58,596 nt of DNA, from positions 1-58,596 of IMG/VR virus record IMGVR_UViG_3300012942_000006. One strand, 5' to 3'. Source of the DNA: a virus. Its lineage: Duplodnaviria; Caudoviricetes. Below the pieces are notes generated by a model, which worked only from the letters and a program-made list of their open reading frames with translations, did no database searches and had not been told where the DNA came from. The position numbers were made by a program, and so were the translations under genes. This document shows, piece by piece, positions 4,438-45,182 of the stretch (positions are counted from its first letter, which is position 1; each line of letters begins with the position of its first letter).

Positions 4438-4604
4438 TGAAGAGCATTCTCGATGCCGCTCCTGATGAGCTGGCTGCAGTCAAGAAGCGAACAATTCGGT
4501 CTCTGGCCATGGGCCAGATCGCCGAGGAAGACTGTGACTACATCAACAGTCACATCGACGCCATTCTGAAGAGAGTGGCGGAGCTGAAGGAAGGAGACAA
4601 GTGA
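4437..4604 (+). CDS. hypothetical protein, 55 aa
   Basis: Manual ORF MKSILDAAPDELAAVKKR... filling the gap, overlapping both neighbours. Confidence 0.65.
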   Translation: MKSILDAAPDELAAVKKRTIRSLAMGQIAEEDCDYINSHIDAILKRVAELKEGDK

Positions 4605-6490: not shown

Positions 6491-6564
6491 CCGACGCTTT
6501 ACACGGGCGCGTAGCGTCTTCGGACAGAACAGCCGACCGGCTGCGCCCGGACCACTAGCGGTAA

Positions 6565-6812
6565 AACGCACCACAATAAACACAATCGTCACACAATATG
6601 GGGCTCATCCTTCCTCATTCGCCCACAATAATGAGGGAACGACCTGAGAATGAGCCACAATAATGAGCAAATATTGTGGGGAATGAGGTGGCTGTCTGTC
6701 TGCGTGGCAGGCGGTAGACTTGTTCGGCTCGGCTGTCCCCAGGACCGAACCATCAGAGTAGGACAGTAACTGAGAAGAAGAAGAGAGATTCTCCTCTCTC
6801 CTCTCCTATATA
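6565..6812. repeat. iteron-like non-coding element, copy 1 (candidate replication origin)
   Basis: Multiple CACAAT(A), CCTCATTC/GAATGAG and AG-rich tracts; homologous to 29020..29265. Confidence 0.75.
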
Positions 6813-6856: not shown

Positions 6857-9739
6857 GTGCCCGATAGGAAGTACAAGCCAGAAACCGTCCGAGCAGCTTT
6901 CTCTCCATACTTCGTGGGTGAAGAGAGCGATGGCGAACAAAGGATGTTCTGCCCGGTCTGCGAGGACCCCGACACAAGTCACTCGCCTAGTGCATCTATC
7001 AATCCAGAAGAGGGTATATGGAACTGCCTGAAGGGGAATCACGGCGGATCGATCTATCGCCTGGCGCAAGACCTCAAGAAGGAGAACGGCTGGGACATCC
7101 GTTCTGAGTCGCTGAAGTACAAGCACAAAGACCCTGAATACCGTTCCGCAGTACAGTCGAGGCTTAGCTCTGGACGCCAGCCTTCCGCAGCGCCACTTCC
7201 GACAGATGAGAAGATAGCGTCCTGGACAGAGAAGCTCTTCGCTAATAAGCAAGCTCTCAAGGCTCTTCAGGAACAACGAGGCCTGGACCGCAAGACCATC
7301 GTCGACAATGAGCTGGGATGGGACGGAGACCGCTACACCATTCCGGTGCGCGACGAGGATGGCGAGCTGCTGAACGTCCGCCGGTATAAGATGGGCGCTG
7401 AGTCGTCCAACAAGATGCTGAACTGGACTGGACACGGTCAGGCTCAGCTGTACAAGGCAGACATCCTTCGCGATAACGAGGAGATTGTCATCACTGAGGG
7501 CGAGATGGACTGCATCCTGCTCAACCAGTATGGTATCCCCGCCGTAACGCACACTGCCGGCGCAGCCACATTCCGTCCCAATTGGGCGGGTAAGTTCGTC
7601 GACAAGGTCGTCTACATCTGCTACGACAATGACGACGCAGGACGCAAGGGCGCTGCGAAGGTCAATCAGATCCTCAACGCATTCGCTAAGCACGTATTCA
7701 TCATGGACATCGGAGCCATGATCCCGACCAAGGGCGCAGACGTCACAGACTATCTGCACAAGGAAGGGCATACTTCGTCAGAGTTCATGGGGTTGATGAA
7801 CGCTGCAGAGGAGGCGGCCAACTCAGGGCTGAAGACTCGCGCTCCTATCTCGCAGGCTGGCGAGCCGATGTCGCTCAATGACTCCATGGCGCAGTCAAAC
7901 CAGTCCAAAACTATGGAGCTGACTGTGAGCATTGCCGGTAGACAGCAGGAGCCGTACACAACTCCAAAGCTAATCACTGTCACTTGCGACCAGTCCAAGG
8001 GTGCTGCGTGCAACTCCTGCCCCATCGCAGCGAGGAACGGACAGGCTGAATTCGACATCCGCCCAGACGACGAGAATCTATTCAGATTCGTCGACGTTAC
8101 CGAGCAGCGTCGCAAGGCGCTTCTGAAGGAACTTACTGGTGCGCGATGCACCGACCGAGCAGACTTCGACGTGGATGAGAATTGGCACGTCGAGGAGTTG
8201 CTTGTGCAACCGTCCGTCGACGACCGAAAGGACGACCAGACACAGCAGCCAGTGCGGCGCACTGTGTTCGCAGTTGGAACGCACTCTTCCACCGTGAATC
8301 GGAAGGTGCGCCTGGTCGGGAAGAACGTCGGCGACCCCAAAACCGGCAAGTTGCGATTCATGTCGTGGGTGAACCAGTCTGTTGAGCTAGACATCGACAA
8401 GTTCGTTCTGACAGACGACATGCGCGAGCGCCTGAAGCAATTCCAGCCAGATGAGGACCAGTCTCCTCTCGACAAGATGTTCGAGATCGCGAACGACATG
8501 TCGTCAAACGTGACGCACATCTATGGTCGTGATCTTCTCCACGTTGCATACGATCTCGTGTGGCATTCTGTCATATCGTTCCGCATCGGCGACATGCTCG
8601 TCGAGAAGGGATGGCTCGAGATGGCAGTCGTTGGGGACACCCGTACTGGTAAATCCGAGATCGCTAACAAGCTGATCAAGCACTACAGGTCCGGAACATT
8701 GCAGTCTTGCGAGGGTATGTCATTCCCCGGCATCGTCGGAGGCGTCCAGCAGATCGACGGGCGCTGGCACATGACATGGGGCGTGGTACCGATGAACGAC
8801 CGTCGTATGGTCGTTCTGGATGAGGTGTCTGGGCTCAAGGAGAAGGACGTCATCGAGCAGATGTCATCGATCCGCTCCTCTGGCGTTGCCCAGGTGACGA
8901 AGATCGCAGCCGAGGAGACCAGCGCTCGCACTCGCCTAGCTTGGGTGATGAATCCTGCCGATGGGAGCATGATCAGAGACAATCCGCTTGCAGGAATCGG
9001 CGCTCTGCGGACTGTGGTCCCCAATGCAGAAGACATAGCCAGATTCGACTTCGTGATTGCTACAGCCAAGGGCGATGTCGACTCCAAAGTGATCAACTCA
9101 TCCTTCAGCGAGCTTCACACGCCGATGTACAATGCGGAGGACAGCGAGTCACTCGTCAAATGGGTATGGTCGCTCACTCGCAACGACGTTCATGTCTCAG
9201 ACGCAGCAGCCAAGGCTGCCATCAAGGCGTCGCTTGACCTGGGTGAACGGTATGTGTCAGATCCTCCGCTCATCCAGGCTGAGAATGTTAGATTCAAGGT
9301 GTTACGAATCGCTGCTGCGATTGCGGCGCGAACGTTCTCAGTGTCGAGCAGGGGCAAGCTCCTAGTTAATGCAGAGCACGTTCGGGACGCAGTTCGGTTC
9401 CTTGACATGGTCTACGCCGAAGACTCGCTCGGATACGCCAGGCTGTCTCGCAGGAAGATCGAGTCCGATGCCAAGGCACAGAAGAAGCGCAACATCTGCA
9501 AGGCATATCTGCAGGAGCATCCGGACTCGGTCCTGCTGACGCTGCGAATGGTTGGAGGGAACAACTTCCGTACGCGTGACTTCCAGGACTTCGGTGGCAT
9601 GTCTCCGGACGAAGCGAAGGCTGCCGTCAACCAACTCATCAAGTGGCAGCTGGTGTATACGAAGACGCGTGGTGACATCGGTATGTCAAAGATCCTCATG
9701 GACGTGATCCGTGAGCTTGATGACGAAGAAGTCGCATAA
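6857..9739 (+). CDS. DNA primase/helicase: Zn finger + TOPRIM + MCM-like AAA+ helicase
   Basis: CPVC...C..H zinc finger; ITEGEMD and CYDNDDAG TOPRIM motifs; GDTRTGKS, VLDE and ARFD (MCM arginine-finger-like). Confidence 0.9.
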   Translation: MPDRKYKPETVRAAFSPYFVGEESDGEQRMFCPVCEDPDTSHSPSASINPEEGIWNCLKGNHGGSIYRLAQDLKKENGWDIRSESLKYKHKDPEYRSAVQSRLSSGRQPSAAPLPTDEKIASWTEKLFANKQALKALQEQRGLDRKTIVDNELGWDGDRYTIPVRDEDGELLNVRRYKMGAESSNKMLNWTGHGQAQLYKADILRDNEEIVITEGEMDCILLNQYGIPAVTHTAGAATFRPNWAGKFVDKVVYICYDNDDAGRKGAAKVNQILNAFAKHVFIMDIGAMIPTKGADVTDYLHKEGHTSSEFMGLMNAAEEAANSGLKTRAPISQAGEPMSLNDSMAQSNQSKTMELTVSIAGRQQEPYTTPKLITVTCDQSKGAACNSCPIAARNGQAEFDIRPDDENLFRFVDVTEQRRKALLKELTGARCTDRADFDVDENWHVEELLVQPSVDDRKDDQTQQPVRRTVFAVGTHSSTVNRKVRLVGKNVGDPKTGKLRFMSWVNQSVELDIDKFVLTDDMRERLKQFQPDEDQSPLDKMFEIANDMSSNVTHIYGRDLLHVAYDLVWHSVISFRIGDMLVEKGWLEMAVVGDTRTGKSEIANKLIKHYRSGTLQSCEGMSFPGIVGGVQQIDGRWHMTWGVVPMNDRRMVVLDEVSGLKEKDVIEQMSSIRSSGVAQVTKIAAEETSARTRLAWVMNPADGSMIRDNPLAGIGALRTVVPNAEDIARFDFVIATAKGDVDSKVINSSFSELHTPMYNAEDSESLVKWVWSLTRNDVHVSDAAAKAAIKASLDLGERYVSDPPLIQAENVRFKVLRIAAAIAARTFSVSSRGKLLVNAEHVRDAVRFLDMVYAEDSLGYARLSRRKIESDAKAQKKRNICKAYLQEHPDSVLLTLRMVGGNNFRTRDFQDFGGMSPDEAKAAVNQLIKWQLVYTKTRGDIGMSKILMDVIRELDDEEVA

Positions 9740-9846
9740 ACATGAAGAGCCCCTGATCGGCCGAAGGACCATTTTCGACCAACCAGGGGCTCTTGTGCCC
9801 GAAACACCAGCAACAAGGAAGGAGCTGAAACCATGATTTCAGCAAC
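9740..9846 (-). ncRNA. candidate small antisense/regulatory RNA
   Basis: Minus-strand GGTAGAGT -10 element (9853-9860); three hairpins whose + strand A-C mismatches are G-U pairs on the minus strand; single-stranded CUCCUUCCUUGUUG. Confidence 0.6.
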
Positions 9847-9880
9847 GGGGCTACTCTACCGCGAAACGTTCGAAGCTGTA

Positions 9881-9938
9881 GTAGTGAAGTTCTGCAGGAT
9901 GGCGTAAGGTAATGTTCATTGAAGCCGGAAGGACCGGC
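9881..9938 (+). promoter_or_regulatory. conserved promoter plus AAGGA-loop hairpin
   Basis: GTAGTG-18-TAAGGT with CTGCAG in the spacer; GCCGG-AAGGA-CCGGC at 9924-9938. Confidence 0.75.
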
Positions 9939-10058
9939 GGAGAGGATCCTCGGCGGTCATCGACGAGATGGCACGTCGGTATCCCCGCGCAATCCCAATA
10001 ACCGGTAAGATAGCCTCAGGCGGAAGGACCGCCAGAGTAAGCAAGGGAAGGACCCATT

Positions 10059-10670
10059 GTGAAGTTCACAGTTTTGGTCGAGGTCGAGGTCGAACGAGAG
10101 GAAGGCAAGTTCGCTGGGCGTGACGAGGTCTTCGAGAGGCTCGAGGATGCAATCGTAGAGGCGGTCGATATTGCAGACCTCCACGGCCTCGGCGCTGACG
10201 GAAGCAGCACGTACGTAGTCGTCGGCACCGACATGCGCGAGTTGGACCGCAAAGAACTCAAGCATGTCTACGACGAGTACGACGAGCGCGTCGTCCAGGA
10301 TCTTCCCGGCGACGAGAATCTTCGCAAGGAGAATCGACATCTGCGATCTCAGCTGAAGGAGCTGAACGAGACCCTCAACTACGTCAAGGATCGCAACCTC
10401 AAGCTCCTTGAGGAGCAGGAGGCGAAGGCAACGCGCATCTATCAGCGCGATCCCGCAAGCTGGGGCAGAGACTCAAAGCGCACATACATCGACGATAGAC
10501 TTCCCGTCACATATCAGTGGGCTGACAACGACACCCAAGGAAGCTTCAATATCGAGTTTCAGCCCGGCCCCAAGGGCGGAGATCTCGAGATTCGATGCAA
10601 CGGATGGCACGATCTGTTCGTCAAGCCGTACTCCAGCAACGTCATCATCGTGAAGGCGGTGGAGCGCTGA
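10059..10670 (+). CDS. hypothetical protein with coiled coil
   Basis: ORF track; preceded by two AAGGA hairpins. Confidence 0.75.
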   Translation: MKFTVLVEVEVEREEGKFAGRDEVFERLEDAIVEAVDIADLHGLGADGSSTYVVVGTDMRELDRKELKHVYDEYDERVVQDLPGDENLRKENRHLRSQLKELNETLNYVKDRNLKLLEEQEAKATRIYQRDPASWGRDSKRTYIDDRLPVTYQWADNDTQGSFNIEFQPGPKGGDLEIRCNGWHDLFVKPYSSNVIIVKAVER

Positions 10671-13789: not shown

Positions 13790-14712
13790 TGCATTACGTC
13801 TCGTTGCACAGCCATTCCACGTACTCATACATGGACGGCTACGGTCTACCAGAGCAGCATGTTGAGCGAGTAGCTGAGCTGGGCATGAAGGCGCTCGCCC
13901 TCACTGAGCACGGCAATGTGTCATCGCACGTGAAGCTCGAGAAGGCTGCAGAGAAGCACGGTATCAAGCCGATCTACGGACTGGAGGCTTATACGGCTCC
14001 GGCTGACATGCGCGAGACTCGTAACATGCGCAAGTGGCATCAGACGATTCTGGCCATGAATCAGAATGGATATCAGAATCTCAATAAGATGGTTACGAGG
14101 AGCTGGAATGATAACTTCTACCGCTGGCCGACGGTTCTTGGCAAAGACGTCCAGGAGCTCAATAAGGATCTTATCTTCACGTCGGGCTGCGCCGATTCGC
14201 TCCTGGCGTGCACGCTCCTTGGCGGCAAGGGTATCGAAGTTGGAGACTACGACGCAGCCGTCAAGGTGCTCAAAAAGTTCAAACGTATGCTGGGCGATCG
14301 CTACTATCTAGAGGTCCAGCGCTTCCCAGGACTAGAGCGTACCCGCATTCTCAACAGGCAGTACGCTGCGTGGAGCAAGGAGTTCGGGATCCCTCTAGTT
14401 GCTACATCTGATGTGCACTATCCGAAGCCGGAGCACAATGAGATGCAGAAGATCCTTCATGCCGCTGGCCGAAACACTGGCACGGTCGCAGCAGCAGAGG
14501 CCGAGTGGGAATACAACATCCTCTTGACCTATCCGGAGTCAGACGACCAGGTTCTATTCGATCTTATGGAGACTGGGCTCACTCGTGGCGAGGCCCAGGC
14601 CGCAATCATCAACACAGAGGAGATTGCAGAGCGATGCACAGTGGTACTTCCAAAGATGGACCGCATCCGCTATCCGGGGACGAAGAGAGACCTACTCCCG
14701 TGGACAGACTGA
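13789..14712 (+). CDS. dnaE: DNA polymerase III alpha, PHP domain (N-terminal part of split DnaE)
   Basis: LHSHSTYSYMDG, ALTEHG, KPIYGLEAY, VATSDVHY. Confidence 0.92.
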   Translation: MHYVSLHSHSTYSYMDGYGLPEQHVERVAELGMKALALTEHGNVSSHVKLEKAAEKHGIKPIYGLEAYTAPADMRETRNMRKWHQTILAMNQNGYQNLNKMVTRSWNDNFYRWPTVLGKDVQELNKDLIFTSGCADSLLACTLLGGKGIEVGDYDAAVKVLKKFKRMLGDRYYLEVQRFPGLERTRILNRQYAAWSKEFGIPLVATSDVHYPKPEHNEMQKILHAAGRNTGTVAAAEAEWEYNILLTYPESDDQVLFDLMETGLTRGEAQAAIINTEEIAERCTVVLPKMDRIRYPGTKRDLLPWTD

Positions 14713-17151: not shown

Positions 17152-17212
17152 GTAGCGGAATTCGCATTACGTAGGGTAGACTGCCCTAGCAATGCTGGGA
17201 AGGACCCAAGCA
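17152..17212 (+). promoter_or_regulatory. conserved promoter plus AAGGA-loop hairpin
   Basis: GTAGCG-19-TAGACT; TGGG-AAGGA-CCCA at 17196-17208. Confidence 0.65.
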
Positions 17213-18674: not shown

Positions 18675-18860
18675 ATGCGTAAGCTTGTTCTTGTAGGCCG
18701 CAAGGCTCCAGACGAGGAGCTGTTCACCGAGGAGGTCGATGCCACGCATATCTGGCCCGAGCACGAGGGCTGGGCGGACACCGCCGAGATCAACTGGGAC
18801 ATCGTTCAGAAGATCACGCTCGTGCAGAGTAGTGAAACTGCAGACTCTGGCGTAGAGTAA
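18675..18860 (+). CDS. hypothetical protein
   Basis: ORF track; CTGG-AAGGA-CCAG hairpin at the RBS. Confidence 0.65.
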   Translation: MRKLVLVGRKAPDEELFTEEVDATHIWPEHEGWADTAEINWDIVQKITLVQSSETADSGVE

Positions 18861-18889
18861 TGTTCATTGAGGGTCGGAAGGACCGATCC
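18829..18889 (+). promoter_or_regulatory. conserved promoter plus AAGGA-loop hairpin
   Basis: GTAGTG-18-TAGAGT with CTGCAG; shares GTAATGTTCATTGA with the 9881 copy; GGGTCGG-AAGGA-CCGATCC. Confidence 0.8.
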
Positions 18890-19667: not shown

Positions 19668-19921
19668 TAGCTCCTCTTCAACGGGCGGAAGTTCGGATCG
19701 AGCGGCTGCTAGCAGTGGCTGCTCATCCGAGCACCCCGCGCGAGGAGGCTCGAACGGCTCTCGTCGGGGCCGAGAAGGCGATAGAGAACAGAGGTCTCCA
19801 GAGTCAGTTCGGGCCACGTATCGCCCTTCTTCGCTTCGTCCTCGCAGCACAAGAGGCCTCCGATGCTATAGCTTCTGTCAGCAGGGCGTCTCTCAATCTG
19901 CACGATGCCTGGCCAAAGTAG
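19664..19921 (+). CDS. short DUF2786-like protein
   Basis: RIERLLAVAAHPSTPREEARTA resembles the N-terminus of the upstream gene. Confidence 0.55.
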   Translation: MIAPLQRAEVRIERLLAVAAHPSTPREEARTALVGAEKAIENRGLQSQFGPRIALLRFVLAAQEASDAIASVSRASLNLHDAWPK

Positions 19922-19975
19922 CGAAAACTGCAGAGTTGGCGTAGGATAATACTCATAAGGCGGAAGGACCGCCTT
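19918..19975 (+). promoter_or_regulatory. conserved promoter plus AAGGA-loop hairpin
   Basis: GTAGCG-18-TAGGAT with CTGCAG; AAGGCGG-AAGGA-CCGCCTT. Confidence 0.8.
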
Positions 19976-19988
19976 GGGAAAGGAAAAG

Positions 19989-20309
19989 ATGTTCTCCAAG
20001 TCTGAGATTCGGGGTTACGCCCAGGATGCAGTCATCCGCCTCTTGGAAGACTCGCAAGACCCCGACGCCAACCTGGTCTACACTGGCCAGTTTGTCGTCG
20101 TCGGGTCCATCTCCTCCACATGGCCCTGGAACGTGGACAACGTCTACAAGCGCTCGTTCGCAGCCCAGGAGCCGATCCTGGCGGTCTACATCGACTGCTC
20201 GGTTCCGGGGGCCGGGTTCGGCCTCTGGGCCGCAAGGGATTCCGGAGGCTCCTGGCGCTACTCGGAAGACTTGTCGGGGCTCCTGGAGGAGCTTGGCCGG
20301 TCGCTCTAG
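19989..20309 (+). CDS. hypothetical protein
   Basis: ORF after promoter and AAGGA SD; followed by a cUUCGg hairpin. Confidence 0.65.
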   Translation: MFSKSEIRGYAQDAVIRLLEDSQDPDANLVYTGQFVVVGSISSTWPWNVDNVYKRSFAAQEPILAVYIDCSVPGAGFGLWAARDSGGSWRYSEDLSGLLEELGRSL

Positions 20310-20361: not shown

Positions 20362-20418
20362 GTAGTGAAACTGCAGAGCATAGAGTAGAGTTCTAATATC
20401 AGCCGGAAGGACCGGCTG
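20362..20418 (+). promoter_or_regulatory. conserved promoter plus AAGGA-loop hairpin
   Basis: GTAGTG-18-TAGAGT with CTGCAG; CAGCCGG-AAGGA-CCGGCTG. Confidence 0.8.
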
Positions 20419-21030: not shown

Positions 21031-21498
21031 ATGCAGACCATCACTCTTACCATCACGATCTCAGTTCCAGAAGGGGCCGTTGTTGAAGTAGCTCCGCAGG
21101 TCGAAGAGACTCCTGTCGAAAAGCCGACTCCGGCTCCGATGATCATGTTCAGCCAGGATCCAGAATATCCCGAGTGGATGCGAGCACCAGGGTCTCGCTG
21201 GACCGACGAGGAGATCGACATCGCATCCGACCTGTCTCTGACCGACGCAGACGTTGCAGAGCTCCTGGGGCGCAGCACAGCATCTGTCGCCGCATATCGC
21301 CTCAACCACGGACTTCGCCAAAAGATGCACAATCGCGTCGTTGACAAGTCTGCGACGAGGGCCATGGCAAGGTGGACGAAGTCAGAGATCGAGTATCTCC
21401 AGAAGCGTTACAACGGCAGCAACGGTGACGAGATCGCTGAGTATCTCGGACGCTCGGCCGGGGCCATTCAGAGCAAGGCTCGCGGCCTCGCGAAGTAG
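21031..21498 (+). CDS. Myb/HTH-repeat DNA-binding protein
   Basis: Two repeats RWT.EE.....IAE.LGRS..(S/A)(V/I); hairpin at the RBS. Confidence 0.75.
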   Translation: MQTITLTITISVPEGAVVEVAPQVEETPVEKPTPAPMIMFSQDPEYPEWMRAPGSRWTDEEIDIASDLSLTDADVAELLGRSTASVAAYRLNHGLRQKMHNRVVDKSATRAMARWTKSEIEYLQKRYNGSNGDEIAEYLGRSAGAIQSKARGLAK

Positions 21499-21550
21499 CC
21501 AAATCCGCATTCGACACAGTAGGCTTAAGAGACAACCAGGGAAGGACCCT
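21495..21550 (+). promoter_or_regulatory. promoter plus AAGGA-loop hairpin
   Basis: GTAGCC-19-TAGGCT; AGGG-AAGGA-CCCT. Confidence 0.6.
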
Positions 21551-21837: not shown

Positions 21838-22013
21838 ATCGCAGAGCCCGTCTCCGGAGGACAGGCGGAGCTCTTCTTCTCGGAGCCGTTCTGTTCTCTA
21901 CCGGAGGCACCTTCTGGAACATTACCGCAACCGCAACACTCACCGCCCTCGCAGCCACAACAGAGATCGTCGCCCGACGCCTCGCAAGGAAGGAATCCAA
22001 TGTCAAGCACTGA
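21834..22013 (+). CDS. small membrane protein
   Basis: ATGA overlap; hydrophobic segments. Confidence 0.5.
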   Translation: MNRRARLRRTGGALLLGAVLFSTGGTFWNITATATLTALAATTEIVARRLARKESNVKH

Positions 22014-29019: not shown

Positions 29020-29265
29020 GAAAACTCATCTCCCTCATTCGCACAATATTGAGGTCAGTTGGGGTCAATATTGTGTGCGAATGAGGGCGGCCCTCAGGGA
29101 ATATTGTGTGTAATGAGGCAAATATTGTGGGGATTGTGGCGTGTGTTGCGCATGGGCAGGTCGGCGGAGGTCGTTCGGCTCGGCGATCAGTCGGGAGGCC
29201 CGGAGTAGGGGATAGGACAGTAACTGAGAGAGATGAGATAGAGAGTTAGAGAGGAGAATGTATAG
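29020..29265. repeat. iteron-like non-coding element, copy 2, with a large inverted repeat
   Basis: CCCTCATTCGCACAATATTGA / TCAATATTGTGTGCGAATGAGGG; blocks shared with 6565..6812. Confidence 0.75.
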
Positions 29266-31724: not shown

Positions 31725-33171
31725 TGTAGCAGTTCAGGTCGAGACGCTCGACATCAACGGCATCTTCGAGGATGTCGAGTACAAGCCGCACGCCGGACAG
31801 ATCCCGATCCACATCGCCGGACTCAGCCACCGCTTCCGGCTGGCGAGCTGCGGACGACGCTTCGGCAAGTCACAGGTCGGCGGGCACGAGCTGACCGTCG
31901 CAGCGTTCGAGGCGTATGGGCAGCGTGGACAGCTGTCTCCCAAGGGCAAGCGCCACGAGTACTGGATCGTCGGACCGGAGTACTCCGACGCCGAGAAGGA
32001 GTTTCGTGTTGTCTACGACGACCTGACTCGGCTCGGTGTGGAGTTCGACAGGCCTGGCACCTACTACTCCGAGGGCGGCGGGGACATGGACATCTCGCTG
32101 TTCGGAGGGCGGTTCCTTGTCCATGCCAAGTCCGCGAAGTATCCACAGACGCTGGTCGGTGAAGGTCTGCGAGGCGTGATCCTGGCCGAGGCTGCCAAGC
32201 TCAAGCCGATCGTGTGGACTAAGTACATCCGCCCGACCCTGGCAGACTTCGCACGCGAGGGCAGCTGGGCTCTGCTCACGTCGACTCCAGAGGGCAAGAA
32301 CTGGTTCTACGATCTGTACCAGCGCGGACAGTCCACGCTCAAAGGCGACAGTGAGTGGTACTCGATTCGGAGACCGTCCTGGACGAACGACATCGTGTTC
32401 CCAGAAGGCGAGACAGACCCCGAGATCGAGGAGATGCGCGCCGACATGTCGGCCGAGAAGTTCAAGCAGGAGATCGAGGCGGACTTCACAGAGTTCGTCG
32501 GGCGAGTCTTCAAGGACTTCTCCATTGAGACGCACGTCGGCGACTTCCAGTACAATCCGCGCTGGCCGGTCTACATCGCAGAGGACGCCGGATTCACGAA
32601 CCCCAACGTTGCCCTGTTCCTGCAAGTGGACATGTGGGACAACGTCTGGGTGCTGGCCGAGTACTACGAGCGCCATCGCATCCCGGAGGAGTTTGCACAG
32701 GACGTTCTCGAGCACCACAAGCTCGGGTCGCTGGCACGTGTGGCGCGGAAGATCTATCCCGATCCAGCAGACCCCGGCACGGCTAACACTCTGGCCAAGC
32801 ACTGGCAGGTCGAGGTCATGGGTGGTACCGGAGGCGAGCGCAAGGATCGTATCGACCTGATCCGTCGCTGGCTCAAGTCGCAGCTGGTGACTGGTGATGC
32901 ATTCGTTCCAGACCTGCAGAACCAGCCGACGATGGCTCCGAAGCTAATGATAGATCGCTCGTGTGAGCATCTGATCCAGGAGATGCAGGACTACCGTTAT
33001 CCGGAGAACAAGCGCGAGGAGTCGCAGGCGGACTCTGAGGAGCCGCTCAAGGTCGACGACCACACCCCCGAGGCTCTGGGTCGATTCTTCATGGGACACT
33101 TCGGCCAGAAATACGGCCCCAAGGCGGCTGCGCGAGTAGCCAGAGCGCGTGTCAAGACTCGCTCACGGTAG
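31717..33171 (+). CDS. terL: terminase large subunit
   Basis: GRRFGKS Walker A, VILAEAA Walker B, STPEGKNWFY, EDAG nuclease motif, DDHTPEA. Confidence 0.93.
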   Translation: MTDVAVQVETLDINGIFEDVEYKPHAGQIPIHIAGLSHRFRLASCGRRFGKSQVGGHELTVAAFEAYGQRGQLSPKGKRHEYWIVGPEYSDAEKEFRVVYDDLTRLGVEFDRPGTYYSEGGGDMDISLFGGRFLVHAKSAKYPQTLVGEGLRGVILAEAAKLKPIVWTKYIRPTLADFAREGSWALLTSTPEGKNWFYDLYQRGQSTLKGDSEWYSIRRPSWTNDIVFPEGETDPEIEEMRADMSAEKFKQEIEADFTEFVGRVFKDFSIETHVGDFQYNPRWPVYIAEDAGFTNPNVALFLQVDMWDNVWVLAEYYERHRIPEEFAQDVLEHHKLGSLARVARKIYPDPADPGTANTLAKHWQVEVMGGTGGERKDRIDLIRRWLKSQLVTGDAFVPDLQNQPTMAPKLMIDRSCEHLIQEMQDYRYPENKREESQADSEEPLKVDDHTPEALGRFFMGHFGQKYGPKAAARVARARVKTRSR

Positions 33172-44932: not shown

Positions 44933-45173
44933 CGATCTGTATCAACTTGATGACGAGGTAGAGGCGTGGTGTTTCGACAGAGCCGTGTTGACCTTCGGGA
45001 ACGCTCTGTCGAACAAACTCCAATTAGTCTCAAGGGCTGCCAAAAAGCAGAAAGAAGCCGACCAGAAGATAGCTCGAGAGCTGAATCGGTGGCTCACCTG
45101 CATGGACGATCCGACGCAGATTCGCGGACGCTTTCGCGATCCGATGTCAGCAATCCGACAGCGCAAGGGATAG
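44865..45173 (+). CDS. tail assembly chaperone gpGT extension via putative +1 frameshift
   Basis: Overlapping +1 frame opening at CGA-TTT-CGT (44861-44869); AWCFDRAV motif. Confidence 0.7.
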   Translation, partial: FVRNPRQLWQTYQMANQLRIRPSDLYQLDDEVEAWCFDRAVLTFGNALSNKLQLVSRAAKKQKEADQKIARELNRWLTCMDDPTQIRGRFRDPMSAIRQRKG

Positions 45174-45182
45174 GAGCCCACG

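Follow-up and report, generated by a model that had tools for sequence, protein, structure and literature searches.

A hairpin of reversed G-U polarity suggests a candidate antisense RNA gene downstream of primase in a soil phage

Between the primase gene and the next plus-strand promoter of the phage genome analysed here, a -10-like box, a 5' hairpin, an open run of pyrimidines and a long GC-rich hairpin with a T-rich tail are arranged in the layout that a small minus-strand RNA gene would have. We regard this layout as supported by the sequence features, and the existence of the RNA itself as somewhat more probable than its non-existence. The strongest new argument for a minus-strand design is the polarity contrast between the large hairpin and the other hairpins of the genome. 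By analogy with the OOP RNA of phage lambda, we favour the reading that the RNA exists and acts in cis, to which we would give slightly less than an even chance. Should the RNA be produced, it would represent a clear example of an antisense regulator, recognisable from sequence alone, inside an actinobacteriophage genome that runs all in one direction, and it would offer a testable handle on how read-through of the primase operon is kept apart from the promoter-driven module that follows. If it is not made, the locus would be an ordinary terminator-like hairpin followed by a tiny ORF.

Results

The genome and its primase gene

The window, that is, the whole stretch of 58,596 nucleotides (58.6 kb) that was analysed, is a complete phage genome from soil. 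The phage is sourced from metagenomes only. Its relatives include the Microbacterium Cluster EF phages, at about 70%. The gene for a DNA primase/helicase of 960 amino acids lies on the plus strand at 6857-9739 with its stop codon TAA at 9737-9739, and the product matches Pfam Toprim_2 (2.8e-08) and, weakly, an MCM P-loop. The gene shares about 70% nucleotide identity with genes annotated as 'DNA primase/helicase' in Cluster EF Microbacterium phages (blastn). When positions 9400-10400 were compared with phages by blastn, 36 records matched, each at 80% or less, with the alignments confined to the primase. The sequence-only reading had taken the genome to be coded entirely on the plus strand, which agrees with the ORF map and with the annotation of the relative Krampus but falls short of proof. 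Two minus-strand ORFs overlap the locus, 9412-9834 (140 aa) and 9696-9845 (49 aa); both were rejected as protein genes, having no Pfam or PHROGs match. Rfam gave no match at gathering score over the whole window and only four noise matches (E of at least 1) in a permissive scan of 9650-10100, and the window holds no tRNA or tmRNA genes.

A long hairpin that pairs fully on the minus strand

The large hairpin at 9745-9794 has arms at 9745-9765 and 9774-9794 and a loop at 9766-9773. Its 21 positions form 18 Watson-Crick pairs and three A-C mismatches on the plus strand (9756/9783, 9758/9781 and 9761/9778), and the same three positions are G-U pairs on the minus strand, which bears out the earlier claim that the 21-bp stem is fully paired on the minus strand only. 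The stem, of 20-21 bp, contains 11 G-C pairs. What the plus strand retains is a perfect 11-bp outer stem (AAGAGCCCCTG/CAGGGGCTCTT) under a weakened top, the apical region of which includes a copy of GAAGGACC at 9763-9770. Folding of 9735-9865 as RNA on both strands, which had been proposed as a check, gave the more stable structure on the minus strand, at -56.3 kcal/mol (z -4.71, matched by 0 of 200 shuffles) against -43.2 kcal/mol on the plus strand (z -3.49, matched by 1 of 200). In a 64-nt sliding fold of the whole window, no other structure on the minus strand was as strong as this hairpin (E- -41.2 versus E+ -27.6 kcal/mol).

The foremost alternative is that only the plus strand has a function here. 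The 11-bp outer stem would then be a terminator, a pause site or a 3'-end protection of the primase message, comparable to the other GC-rich hairpins found ahead of promoters in this phage group. The upper stem would be decaying neutrally, the -10 box and T-tail seen on the minus strand would have arisen by coincidence, and AAGGAAGGAG with its ATG would be a genuine ribosome-binding site, belonging to a peptide of 24 residues or to a decayed gene start. We consider this explanation unlikely, yet serious enough to be weighed against each line of evidence. The inner positions of the hairpin speak against it: they are paired at 10 of 10 on the minus strand, an extension that chance would produce with a probability of about 3e-5 by our arithmetic, which implies that a stem of this length arose or was retained for minus-strand use.

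Polarity of the non-Watson-Crick pairs

We ran a hairpin finder that admits G-U and A-C pairs alike on the window and on Krampus. The ten other non-coding hairpins of the window have 19 G-U and 5 A-C pairs on the plus strand, and the seven GC-rich ones among them (6452, 18621, 20977, 29040, 41162, 41573 and 57537) have 15 G-U and no A-C. The seven GC-rich non-coding hairpins of Krampus have 18 G-U and 1 A-C. With 0 G-U and 3 A-C on the plus strand, the 9745-9794 hairpin alone is reversed among the GC-rich non-coding hairpins, in opposition to what a plus-strand function would predict; Fisher's exact test against 0:3, by our arithmetic, gives p = 1/816 for the seven GC-rich hairpins and 10/2925 for all ten.

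As a neutral control, five coding hairpins (window 3555, 15117 and 55494; Krampus 4064 and 20136) together with the window hairpin 57564 yielded 11 G-U and 16 A-C. Hairpin 57564 is classed as non-coding in the ten-hairpin tally yet was included in this control; without it, the five coding hairpins have 10 G-U and 14 A-C. A further coding hairpin of Krampus at 13950 (1 G-U, 2 A-C) stands outside both control tallies. The sample is small, as the test hairpin contributes three pairs, and a neutral upper stem would show A-C at all three roughly once in every 5 to 8 cases. Moreover, a non-coding palindrome in the iteron region of Krampus has 0 G-U and 5 A-C, so that reversed polarity can also occur in DNA-level elements. 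Pair counts were used because whole-gap folds are a poor measure of polarity: over 16 gaps of Krampus, E+ minus E- spread widely, from -46 to +10.7. The counts suggest a simple rule, that the G-U polarity of a hairpin reports the working strand, which held in the two sets of seven GC-rich hairpins and could be used to look for unnoticed antisense RNAs across the thousands of actinobacteriophages that have been sequenced.

A candidate minus-direction terminator

From its sequence, we modestly favour the view that the 21-bp hairpin terminates a short RNA of the minus strand. In the minus orientation, the locus offers the stable GC-rich stem-loop of an intrinsic terminator, followed 3' of the stem by a T-rich tail, CATGTTTATGCG (9733-9744), which overlaps the primase stop codon. 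With exact bounds, the minus tail has 5 T in 12 and the plus tail, GTGCCCGAAACA, only 1 in 12, which tells against a plus-strand terminator; shifting the bounds by 1-2 nt changes these counts to 6/12 and 0/12. The minus tail passes the loose rule of the terminator scan (5 T in 8), where it is given as TCATGTTTAT, as an interrupted tract (CAUGUUUAUG) partly dictated by the primase stop codon. In favour of a plus-strand role, the other plus-strand hairpins also have no good T-tails (1-5 T in 12). Over the whole window, the scan returned this hairpin, on the minus strand and with 20 pairs, as its sole long hit, the remaining 44 hits having 5-11 pairs each; the totals are near shuffle level (15 vs 11.8, 12 vs 11.1 and 18 vs 10.5). 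Intrinsic terminators of actinobacteria often have poor U-tracts. The hairpin resembles them in its GC-rich stem followed by an imperfect U-tract, and differs in being opposed to all neighbouring genes and in the unusual length of its 21-bp stem.

The candidate promoter and the predicted RNA

The -10-like box GGTAGAGT is present on the minus strand at 9860-9853, as had been claimed, and makes a candidate promoter. Exact copies of the same 8-mer occur on the plus strand at 33167 and 38719, both in non-coding gaps upstream of ORFs, and all six plus-strand matches to the pattern GGTAGAVT likewise lie in such gaps. The pattern occurs twice on the minus strand, where 2.73 occurrences are expected on both strands together; the minus-strand count alone is at chance, a point for the plus-strand alternative. 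We recognised no -35-like element for the minus box, and the upstream element GTAGYGAAA of the plus-strand promoter family is absent there. A sigma-70 consensus scan of 9300-10300 gave no hit on either strand; this null result says little, because the scan also misses the phage's own plus-strand promoters. The box stands back to back with the plus-strand promoter at 9878-9910 and lies, on the minus strand, at an upstream distance that would give an RNA of roughly 105 nt. GGTAGAGT and the ESAS motif of Cluster EF have a common GTAGAG core (PMC7302621).

From this box, a minus-strand RNA of about 105-110 nt is predicted (9737-9846), starting at G9846, 7 nt past the box, and ending in the T-run. 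The model folds at -52.8 kcal/mol into a 5' hairpin, an open linker and a 20-bp terminal hairpin. The 5' hairpin, GCUGAAAU-CAUG-GUUUCAGC (9824-9843), has 8 bp on the minus strand against 7 bp on the plus strand, the additional pair being U-G on the former and A-C on the latter, and the loop of the plus-strand palindrome holds the ATG of the 24-codon ORF. The sequence-only reading had described three hairpins, two of which are robust (9843-9824 and the 20-21-bp hairpin), while the middle one is weak and only partly kept in the centroid. Its linker CUCCUUCCUUGUUG (9811-9824), an anti-Shine-Dalgarno stretch and the complement of plus-strand CAACAAGGAAGGAG, the ribosome site of the 24-codon ORF, is mostly unpaired as described, with a mean unpaired probability of 0.76 over CUCCUUCCUU. 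The proposal that the loop and its adjacent bases form an anti-GAAGGACC element fared less evenly: the loop AAUGGUCC is unpaired (0.999) and provides 5 of the 8 bases, whereas the other three, UUC, are buried inside the 20-bp stem (0.017). The three G-U pairs, the minus-only T-rich tail and the -10-like box about 105 nt upstream support the earlier view of a hairpin designed for minus-strand use.

Plus-strand signals at the same locus

The 24-codon ORF exists on the plus strand at 9833-9907 as described, with a Shine-Dalgarno sequence 8 nt upstream of its ATG. That sequence is the same 10-mer as the ribosome-binding site (RBS) of ORF 4601, which favours an ordinary plus-strand gene start, as does the presence of annotated 29-codon genes in Krampus (gp78). 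Against a real gene, the 24-residue peptide has no match in Pfam or PHROGs, and its stop codon TAA, made of the first three bases of the next -10 box, would be an accident of the promoter. By inspection, the peptide has five charged residues, spread along it, and no long hydrophobic stretch.

The plus-strand promoter (9878-9910) belongs to a repeated family, GTAGTGAAACTGCAG...GCGTAGAGT, with its -10 box here reading TAAGGT (9905-9910); four copies align in the window, and the family is also found in intergenic gaps of Krampus. A leader hairpin of the SAS type, GCCGGAAGGACCGGC, comes first at 9924-9938, and copies follow at about 10019-10033 and at 10044-10056, the latter at the RBS of ORF 10059. 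GC hairpin, promoter and SAS in this order are the standard intergenic module of Krampus and recur in the window, for example at 20281 and 20977, so the plus-strand alternative can account for such an arrangement.

GAAGGACC occurs 15 times on the plus strand and once on the minus strand, with 2.09 expected on both together, and this bias implies a plus-strand role for the copy in the hairpin apex. All plus-strand copies except that one read GGAAGGACC (14 of 15); the copy at 9763 is preceded by C rather than G. Six of the fourteen are just upstream of start codons, four follow the repeated promoter, one is in the second leader hairpin before ORF 10059, one comes after GGTAGACT at 17175, and two lie inside ORFs. 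The copies at 10046, 12977, 18662, 21016, 21540 and 57649 are 6-11 nt before an ATG or GTG, as in SAS; the one at 9763-9770 has neither a flanking GG/CC repeat nor a downstream start codon. The Shine-Dalgarno sequence, the ATG and GAAGGACC are explained equally well by ordinary plus-strand function.

The sequence-only reading had suggested that the RNA and the hairpin family together could be an undescribed regulatory circuit; the hairpin family and the GGTAGANT boxes themselves have already been published, the GAAGGACC hairpins as SAS and the boxes as ESAS motifs of Cluster EF (PMC7302621). SAS have the 13-nt consensus GGGAAAGGACCCC, a short inverted repeat and a position at the ribosome site, and are unusually conserved (PMC7302621). 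The GAAGGACC hairpins here match them, and GGTAGANT has the GTAGAG core of ESAS (PMC7302621), whereas the 9763 copy within the hairpin differs by its preceding C and by having no inverted repeat or start codon. In Cluster K mycobacteriophages, ESAS are reported to hold SigA-like promoters (PMC11373665). Also unlike the published accounts, an antisense RNA is proposed here; in PMC7302621 the word 'antisense' occurs 0 times.

An addition absent from relatives

The segment at 9740-9877, about 135 nt, is absent in all five primase relatives that have sequence past the stop codon (L005, L006/L021, L020, L022 and L023), and in L022 the primase stop codon directly abuts the plus-strand promoter module. 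The segment is thus a self-contained addition. No hairpin follows the primase in any of these five relatives, which counts against the plus-strand alternative. The search covered 12 primase loci in viral contigs, two of them about 70% identical, and 62 loci in metagenome contigs, four of them at 68-74%. As to conservation in related phages, named earlier as a check, none of the close (68-74%) primase loci inspected carries the segment. There was no match to 9735-9925 by blastn against phages, and a wobble-tolerant pattern for the hairpin and the small palindrome found nothing in viral or genome contigs. A stem-end pattern hit three perfect hairpins, which are unrelated. Among the contigs of three runs, the hairpin is covered by the probable source run only; a second soil run contains a 195-nt contig over 9813-10007, with the changes 9879 T>G and 9976 T>G, which ends short of the hairpin.

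Discussion

A cis-acting antisense RNA

In the reading we favour, positions 9737-9860 would form a short transcription unit opposed to the rest of the genome. The GGTAGAGT promoter (9860-9853) would start an RNA near 9846, and transcription would stop about 105-110 nt later, where the hairpin (9794-9745) gives way to its T-rich tail and the primase stop codon is reached, leaving an RNA composed of the 5' stem-loop, the open pyrimidine stretch CUCCUUCCUU and the terminator hairpin. Sense transcription of the primase operon probably reads through the hairpin, because on the plus strand the hairpin is weakened by its three A-C mismatches and has no T-tail. The antisense RNA would be fully complementary to this read-through RNA over a stretch that begins at the primase stop codon and reaches codon 5 of the 24-codon ORF. 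We propose action in cis, after the manner of lambda OOP on the cII-O mRNA. Pairing with the sense RNA would cover the ribosome site of the small ORF, and the long duplex could be cut by a double-strand RNase, which would uncouple the primase mRNA from the part downstream. The sequence-only reading had offered cis-antisense action as one of its two options, and it does follow from the geometry, the RNA being antisense to the Shine-Dalgarno sequence and the start of the 24-codon ORF.

OOP, a well-studied precedent, is a short antisense RNA between cII and O that ends in a hairpin terminator. In work of Krinke and Wulff (1987, 1990; cited in PMC5869508), it reportedly acts on the sense message through RNase III cleavage. 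The proposed RNA would resemble it as a short RNA set against a long unidirectional operon, with its own promoter in or near an intergenic gap that neighbours replication genes, a hairpin terminator where the upstream sense gene ends and, as we propose, action by pairing with the sense message and RNase III cleavage. However, its overlap with the upstream coding region comprises the stop codon and a few bases only, and it would lie mainly over intergenic sequence, along with the ribosome site of the 24-codon ORF. The setting also differs, with an actinobacterium-type host, an apparently lytic phage, no sequence similarity to OOP and a locus known from DNA alone.

The layout, in which a convergent small RNA would overlie the ribosome site and start codon of a very small ORF, is also reminiscent of type I toxin-antitoxin systems. 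We rejected this candidate, since the peptide, with its five charged residues, no long hydrophobic run and no family match, is unlike a hydrophobic membrane toxin. To our knowledge, type I systems have no precedent in this host group. One broad literature query on actinobacteriophage antisense RNAs returned unrelated papers only, and a query on a stem-loop with a promoter in Microbacterium phages found no paper.

A trans-acting small RNA

The same RNA of about 105 nt could instead act in trans, pairing through its open CUCCUUCC and its loop GGUCC with the GGAAGGACC (SAS) sites and shutting off a set of genes. We regard such action as improbable, although everything that argues for the existence of the RNA serves this explanation as well. 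In its bolder form, the RNA would be a phage-made mimic of the anti-Shine-Dalgarno end of 16S rRNA, with CUCCUUCC pairing to GGAAGGACC sites, and would switch the SAS-bearing gene set off, or hand it over, at a set time of infection; we assign this idea a slim chance. If true, this would give the SAS motifs, the role of which is stated as unknown in PMC7302621 and PMC11373665, their first function-linked partner and would show what SAS ribosome sites are for.

The accessibility of the pyrimidine stretch (0.76) and of the loop (0.999) would suit such a function, and every one of the 14 plus-strand GGAAGGACC sites could form seven Watson-Crick pairs through GGAAGGA. Some matches named by the sequence-only reading are real: AAGGAAGGAG occurs on the plus strand at 4587, before ORF 4601, as the 10-mer of its RBS, and CAAGGAAGGA at 21985 before ORF 22000, assigned to Thy1/ThyX by Pfam. 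At ORF 10059, the 8-mer matches, but the RBS reads GAAGGACCCATT, with one extra C. The best-pairing 15 of 69 RBS windows include the SAS genes 18675, 21556 and 10059 as well as 10-11-mer matches at ORFs 4601, 5419 and 22000. Nevertheless, the 69 RBS windows as a set showed only a slight excess over coding controls (-12.6 vs -10.2, sd 3.6, that is, 0.7 sd), so the pairing check did not bear out the circuit that had been envisaged. By our arithmetic, about 6 plus-strand matches of at least 10 nt are expected, against 8 found, 3 of them at RBSs and 5 inside genes; the complementarity is no more than any Shine-Dalgarno complement gives. The three stem-locked bases of the anti-GAAGGACC element count further against trans action, part of the target is hidden inside the SAS hairpins, and titration of at least 14 sites in addition to ordinary Shine-Dalgarno sequences would need a very abundant RNA. 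Finally, Krampus, L020 and L023 bear SAS and are without the segment, which implies that SAS function is independent of it.

A DNA-level element

The hairpin might also work as DNA, as a cruciform or as a hairpin in the single-stranded minus strand that serves replication or a DNA-binding protein without an RNA of its own, for example a priming or loading signal beside the primase gene or an operator-like palindrome. We consider this very improbable. It is consistent with the adjoining primase gene, with the likewise reversed palindrome of Krampus, with the small palindrome GCTGAAAC-CATG-ATTTCAGC, which resembles a dimer binding site, and with folding as DNA, which also favours the minus strand (-26.3, z -5.63, vs -22.1, z -3.96). 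On the other hand, arms of 21 bp greatly exceed the needs of a protein site, neither the -10 box nor the T-tail would be accounted for, and the segment is missing from relatives with the same primase. A replication origin at 9.8 kb was rejected, since there is no change of GC skew near this position and the origin-like, iteron-like repeats (CACAAT/ATTGTGGGG) are elsewhere, at about 6560-6690 upstream of the primase gene and near 29.1 kb. Clusters of these repeats are common to the window, Krampus and L006.

The hairpin downstream of the primase gene

The window, 58,596 bp long and 58.6% G+C, carries direct terminal repeats and represents a complete virus record; on the ORF map, all its large ORFs are on the plus strand. 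The named phages closest to it belong to the Krampus/AnnaSerena group of Microbacterium phages (Cluster EF), with about 70% nucleotide identity that is confined to the primase gene. Near the hairpin, the genes follow the Krampus order (helicase, exonuclease, RecA-like, a 326-aa ORF, a long gap, and primase). The primase/helicase gene (6857–9739, plus strand) encodes 960 aa with a Toprim and a weak MCM P-loop match. ORF 22000 (plus strand), which the sequence-only reading had called thyX, does encode ThyX by its Thy1 match (1.9e-27).

We confirmed what that reading had observed at 9740–9860: the features it listed, including the hairpin, the -10-like box, and the mini-ORF, were all found, although the middle of its three hairpins is weak. 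The main hairpin (arms 9745–9765 and 9774–9794, loop of 8 nt) forms 18 Watson-Crick pairs on the plus strand with three A-C mismatches (9756/9783, 9758/9781, 9761/9778), which become G-U pairs on the minus strand, where 21 of 21 positions are paired. The small hairpin (9824–9843) has 8 pairs on the minus and 7 on the plus strand, the extra pair being U-G. RNA folding of 9735–9865 gave -56.3 kcal/mol (z -4.71) for the minus versus -43.2 (z -3.49) for the plus strand, DNA folds likewise favoured the minus strand (-26.3 versus -22.1), and in a 64-nt sliding fold the main hairpin was the top minus-strand structure of the window (-41.2 versus -27.6 on the plus strand). The tail past the stem is CATGTTTATGCG on the minus strand (5/12 T) and GTGCCCGAAACA on the plus strand (1/12 T); shifting the bounds by 1–2 nt gave 6 T versus 0. 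The main hairpin on the minus strand was also the sole long match of a terminator scan across the window, the other 44 matches having 5–11 pairs and occurring at shuffle frequency. The minus-strand -10-like box, GGTAGAGT (9860–9853), is identical to two plus-strand boxes and similar to four more, all six of which lie upstream of ORFs. By one count, a ribosome-site-like AAGGAAGGAG lies 8 nt upstream of the 24-codon mini-ORF (9833–9907, plus strand).

Polarity of hairpins in all-plus genomes

A hairpin finder admitting Watson-Crick, G-U, and A-C positions alike (at least 13 positions, at least 11 Watson-Crick pairs) was applied to the window and Krampus genomes and returned 14 hairpins in the window. 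On the plus strand, the three within ORFs (3555, 15117, 55494) have 8 G-U and 6 A-C positions. Ten non-coding hairpins were found besides the one after the primase gene, comprising seven GC-rich ones (6452, 18621, 20977, 29040, 41162, 41573, 57537) and three others (2633, 6776, 57564; 4 G-U, 5 A-C). Krampus has seven GC-rich non-coding hairpins, a single iteron-region palindrome (0 G-U, 5 A-C), and three coding hairpins (3 G-U, 10 A-C). Given G-U to A-C ratios of 15:0 in the window and 18:1 in Krampus, the GC-rich non-coding hairpins of these genomes show selection as plus-strand RNA. The main hairpin is the one exception among them: over its 21-bp register it has 0 G-U and 3 A-C positions (Fisher's exact p = 1/816 against the seven, 10/2925 against all ten). 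Its ten inner positions are all paired on the minus strand, an extension with a chance of ~3e-5. The comparison yields, as a by-product, a simple and reusable polarity test for hairpins.

Two structures stood out besides. The hairpin at 6776, already counted above, is made by a purine and then pyrimidine run (6776–6807, AGAAGAAGAGAGATTCTCCTCTCTCCTCTCCT) some 50 nt ahead of the primase gene, and its non-Watson-Crick pairs on the plus strand are 0 G-U and 2 A-C. In the Krampus genome (L082 20692–20783), a perfect 13-bp GC hairpin has in its loop the -35-like portion of the promoter that lies downstream (GGAAATTCGCATTTGC), and the fold of the entire gap is 10.7 kcal/mol more favourable on the minus than on the plus strand.

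A candidate antisense RNA

The segment is laid out like a small RNA gene, with a promoter-like box 105 nt upstream, a 5' stem-loop, an open stretch, and a terminator-like hairpin; the modelled RNA has 110 nt and folds at -52.8 kcal/mol. The hairpin is strong and tailed on the minus strand and weak and without a tail on the plus strand, and we read the segment, as the most likely of the explanations, as a small RNA gene on the minus strand. The hairpin of such an antisense gene within a sense operon would stop the antisense RNA and let sense transcription pass. The RNA predicted here from a single genome would be a phage antisense small RNA, an already known kind. We consider its existence somewhat probable and hold our confidence there because the candidate promoter is a bare octamer no commoner on the minus strand than chance predicts, the T-tail is broken up and has some bases in common with the primase stop codon, three pairs are a small sample, conservation of the segment is absent, and the sequence-only reading had singled out the locus from the whole genome.

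Between the primase stop codon and codon 5 of the mini-ORF, a stretch that takes in the mini-ORF's ribosome site, the predicted RNA is perfectly complementary to any primase transcript that reads through. The nearest studied model for its action is lambda OOP RNA, which, according to work cited in PMC5869508, pairs with cII-O mRNA and leads to RNase III cleavage. On these two grounds, a role in cis appears more likely than one in trans. The RNA would mask the mini-ORF start, and the duplex would be cut, splitting the primase mRNA from the module behind it, which is served by a promoter of its own. The interpretation given in the sequence-only reading is partly supported: polarity, tail, and layout favour the proposed minus-strand RNA gene, and the trans-acting role and undescribed circuit attached to it found no such support.

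Start-associated motifs and function on the plus strand

The motif GAAGGACC occurs 15 times on the plus and once on the minus strand (2.09 expected for both together), and 14 of the 15 plus copies read GGAAGGACC. Six of these are found a few bases ahead of start codons, four come after a repeated promoter (GTAGTGAAACTGCAG...GCGTAGAGT), and two are ORF-internal; of the other two, one forms the second leader hairpin ahead of ORF 10059 and one comes after GGTAGACT at 17175. At the apex of the main hairpin, the copy at 9763 departs from the type: it is the only one with a preceding C, and it has neither the short flanking repeat nor a start codon downstream. By sequence, the motif is the start-associated sequence (SAS) of Cluster EF, for which a passage of PMC7302621 gives the consensus GGGAAAGGACCCC, together with an upstream partner, ESAS, "centred around GTAGAG"; the role is there stated as unclear. 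Since they match these published motifs, the hairpin family and GGTAGANT elements do not in themselves constitute a new circuit. In Cluster K mycobacteriophages, ESAS was later interpreted as SigA-like promoters, according to a passage of PMC11373665. A promoter-like module, GTAG(T/C)GAAA..GCA..(G)TAGAGT, recurs in the window (9878–9910, 17152–17182, 18830–18865, 19918–19955, 20365–20398, 21495–21530) and is followed within ~12–25 nt by a GGAAGGACC hairpin; with GTAGCGAAA, this module also occurs in Krampus intergenic gaps and 3' of the primase in L020, L022, and L023, three of the related loci. From this recurrence, the published Cluster EF ESAS is probably a promoter.

That the segment functions on the plus strand only is a less probable but serious alternative: "hairpin, promoter, SAS" is a common module, the mini-ORF has a good ribosome site, and GAAGGACC is biased to the plus strand, but polarity, tail, and -10 box would all be left as coincidences.

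A single Cluster K-type SAS, the only exact GGGATAGGAGCCC in the window, was found at 45167–45179 (13/13 match to the consensus quoted in PMC12699233), 3 nt ahead of the ATG of ORF 45183 (1205 aa), probably the tape measure gene; all other SAS-like sites are of the GGAAGGACC type.

A lineage-specific segment and the remaining alternatives

The sequence 3' of the primase stop codon was compared in the five closest relatives (L005, which is Krampus, L006/L021, L020, L022, and L023; 68–74% primase protein identity), and a hairpin was absent from all five. The stop codon of L022 directly abuts the conserved promoter, and in the window ~135 nt (9740–9877) separate the stop codon from the promoter at 9878–9910; by this comparison, the segment 9740–9877 is a lineage-specific insert. 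Pattern scans of viral and genome collections found no further copies of the main hairpin or small palindrome, and blastn against phages found no second copy of the hairpin segment. The probable source metagenome run, X1, also contained short contigs from a second relative, a diverged one, at window 9488–9717 (record 3) and 10011–10135 (record 4); one shows 32 differences over 230 nt at the primase 3' end and parts from the window at 9717, ahead of the primase stop codon and hairpin.

It is doubtful that the predicted RNA acts in trans on SAS ribosome sites, as had been proposed. At each SAS, 7 Watson-Crick pairs could form between its open CUCCUUCC stretch and GGAAGGA, but such pairing comes with complementarity to any Shine-Dalgarno sequence, and SAS-bearing relatives are without the segment. 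There were 8 matches of 10 nt or longer between 9740–9850 and the rest of the plus strand, where roughly 6 would be expected; ribosome sites (ORFs 4601, 5419, 22000) account for three of the 8 and gene interiors for five. The mean duplex energy was -12.6 for 69 RBS windows versus -10.2 (sd 3.6) for 2000 coding windows, and the 8 bases that complement GAAGGACC are divided between the loop, with five, and the stem, which locks up three (unpaired probability 0.017).

A DNA-level role of the hairpin is very unlikely. It agrees with the folds computed for DNA and with the iteron palindrome of Krampus, but origin-like repeats sit elsewhere, upstream of the primase and near 29.1 kb, and GC skew does not change at this locus.

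The ~450-nt gap upstream of the primase holds, at 6560–6690, several CACAAT repeats and then inverted ATTGTGGGG, and these words, direct and inverted, also fill the equivalent gaps of Krampus (at L082 7270–7400) and L006 (at 2725–2800); the arrangement looks like an iteron-type origin or a site array of a DNA-binding protein. With at most one mismatch, ATTGTGGGG is not enriched across the window (10 versus 7.0 expected), the signal being its clustering. A second cluster, the tandem ATTGTGGGG ATTGTGGCG at 29124–29141, follows a long near-perfect palindrome (~29030–29085; -31.2 on the plus and -30.0 on the minus strand) in a non-coding gap (feature at 29029–29141), and Krampus has its second ATTGTGGGG-type cluster at the right genome end (L082 31182–31709).
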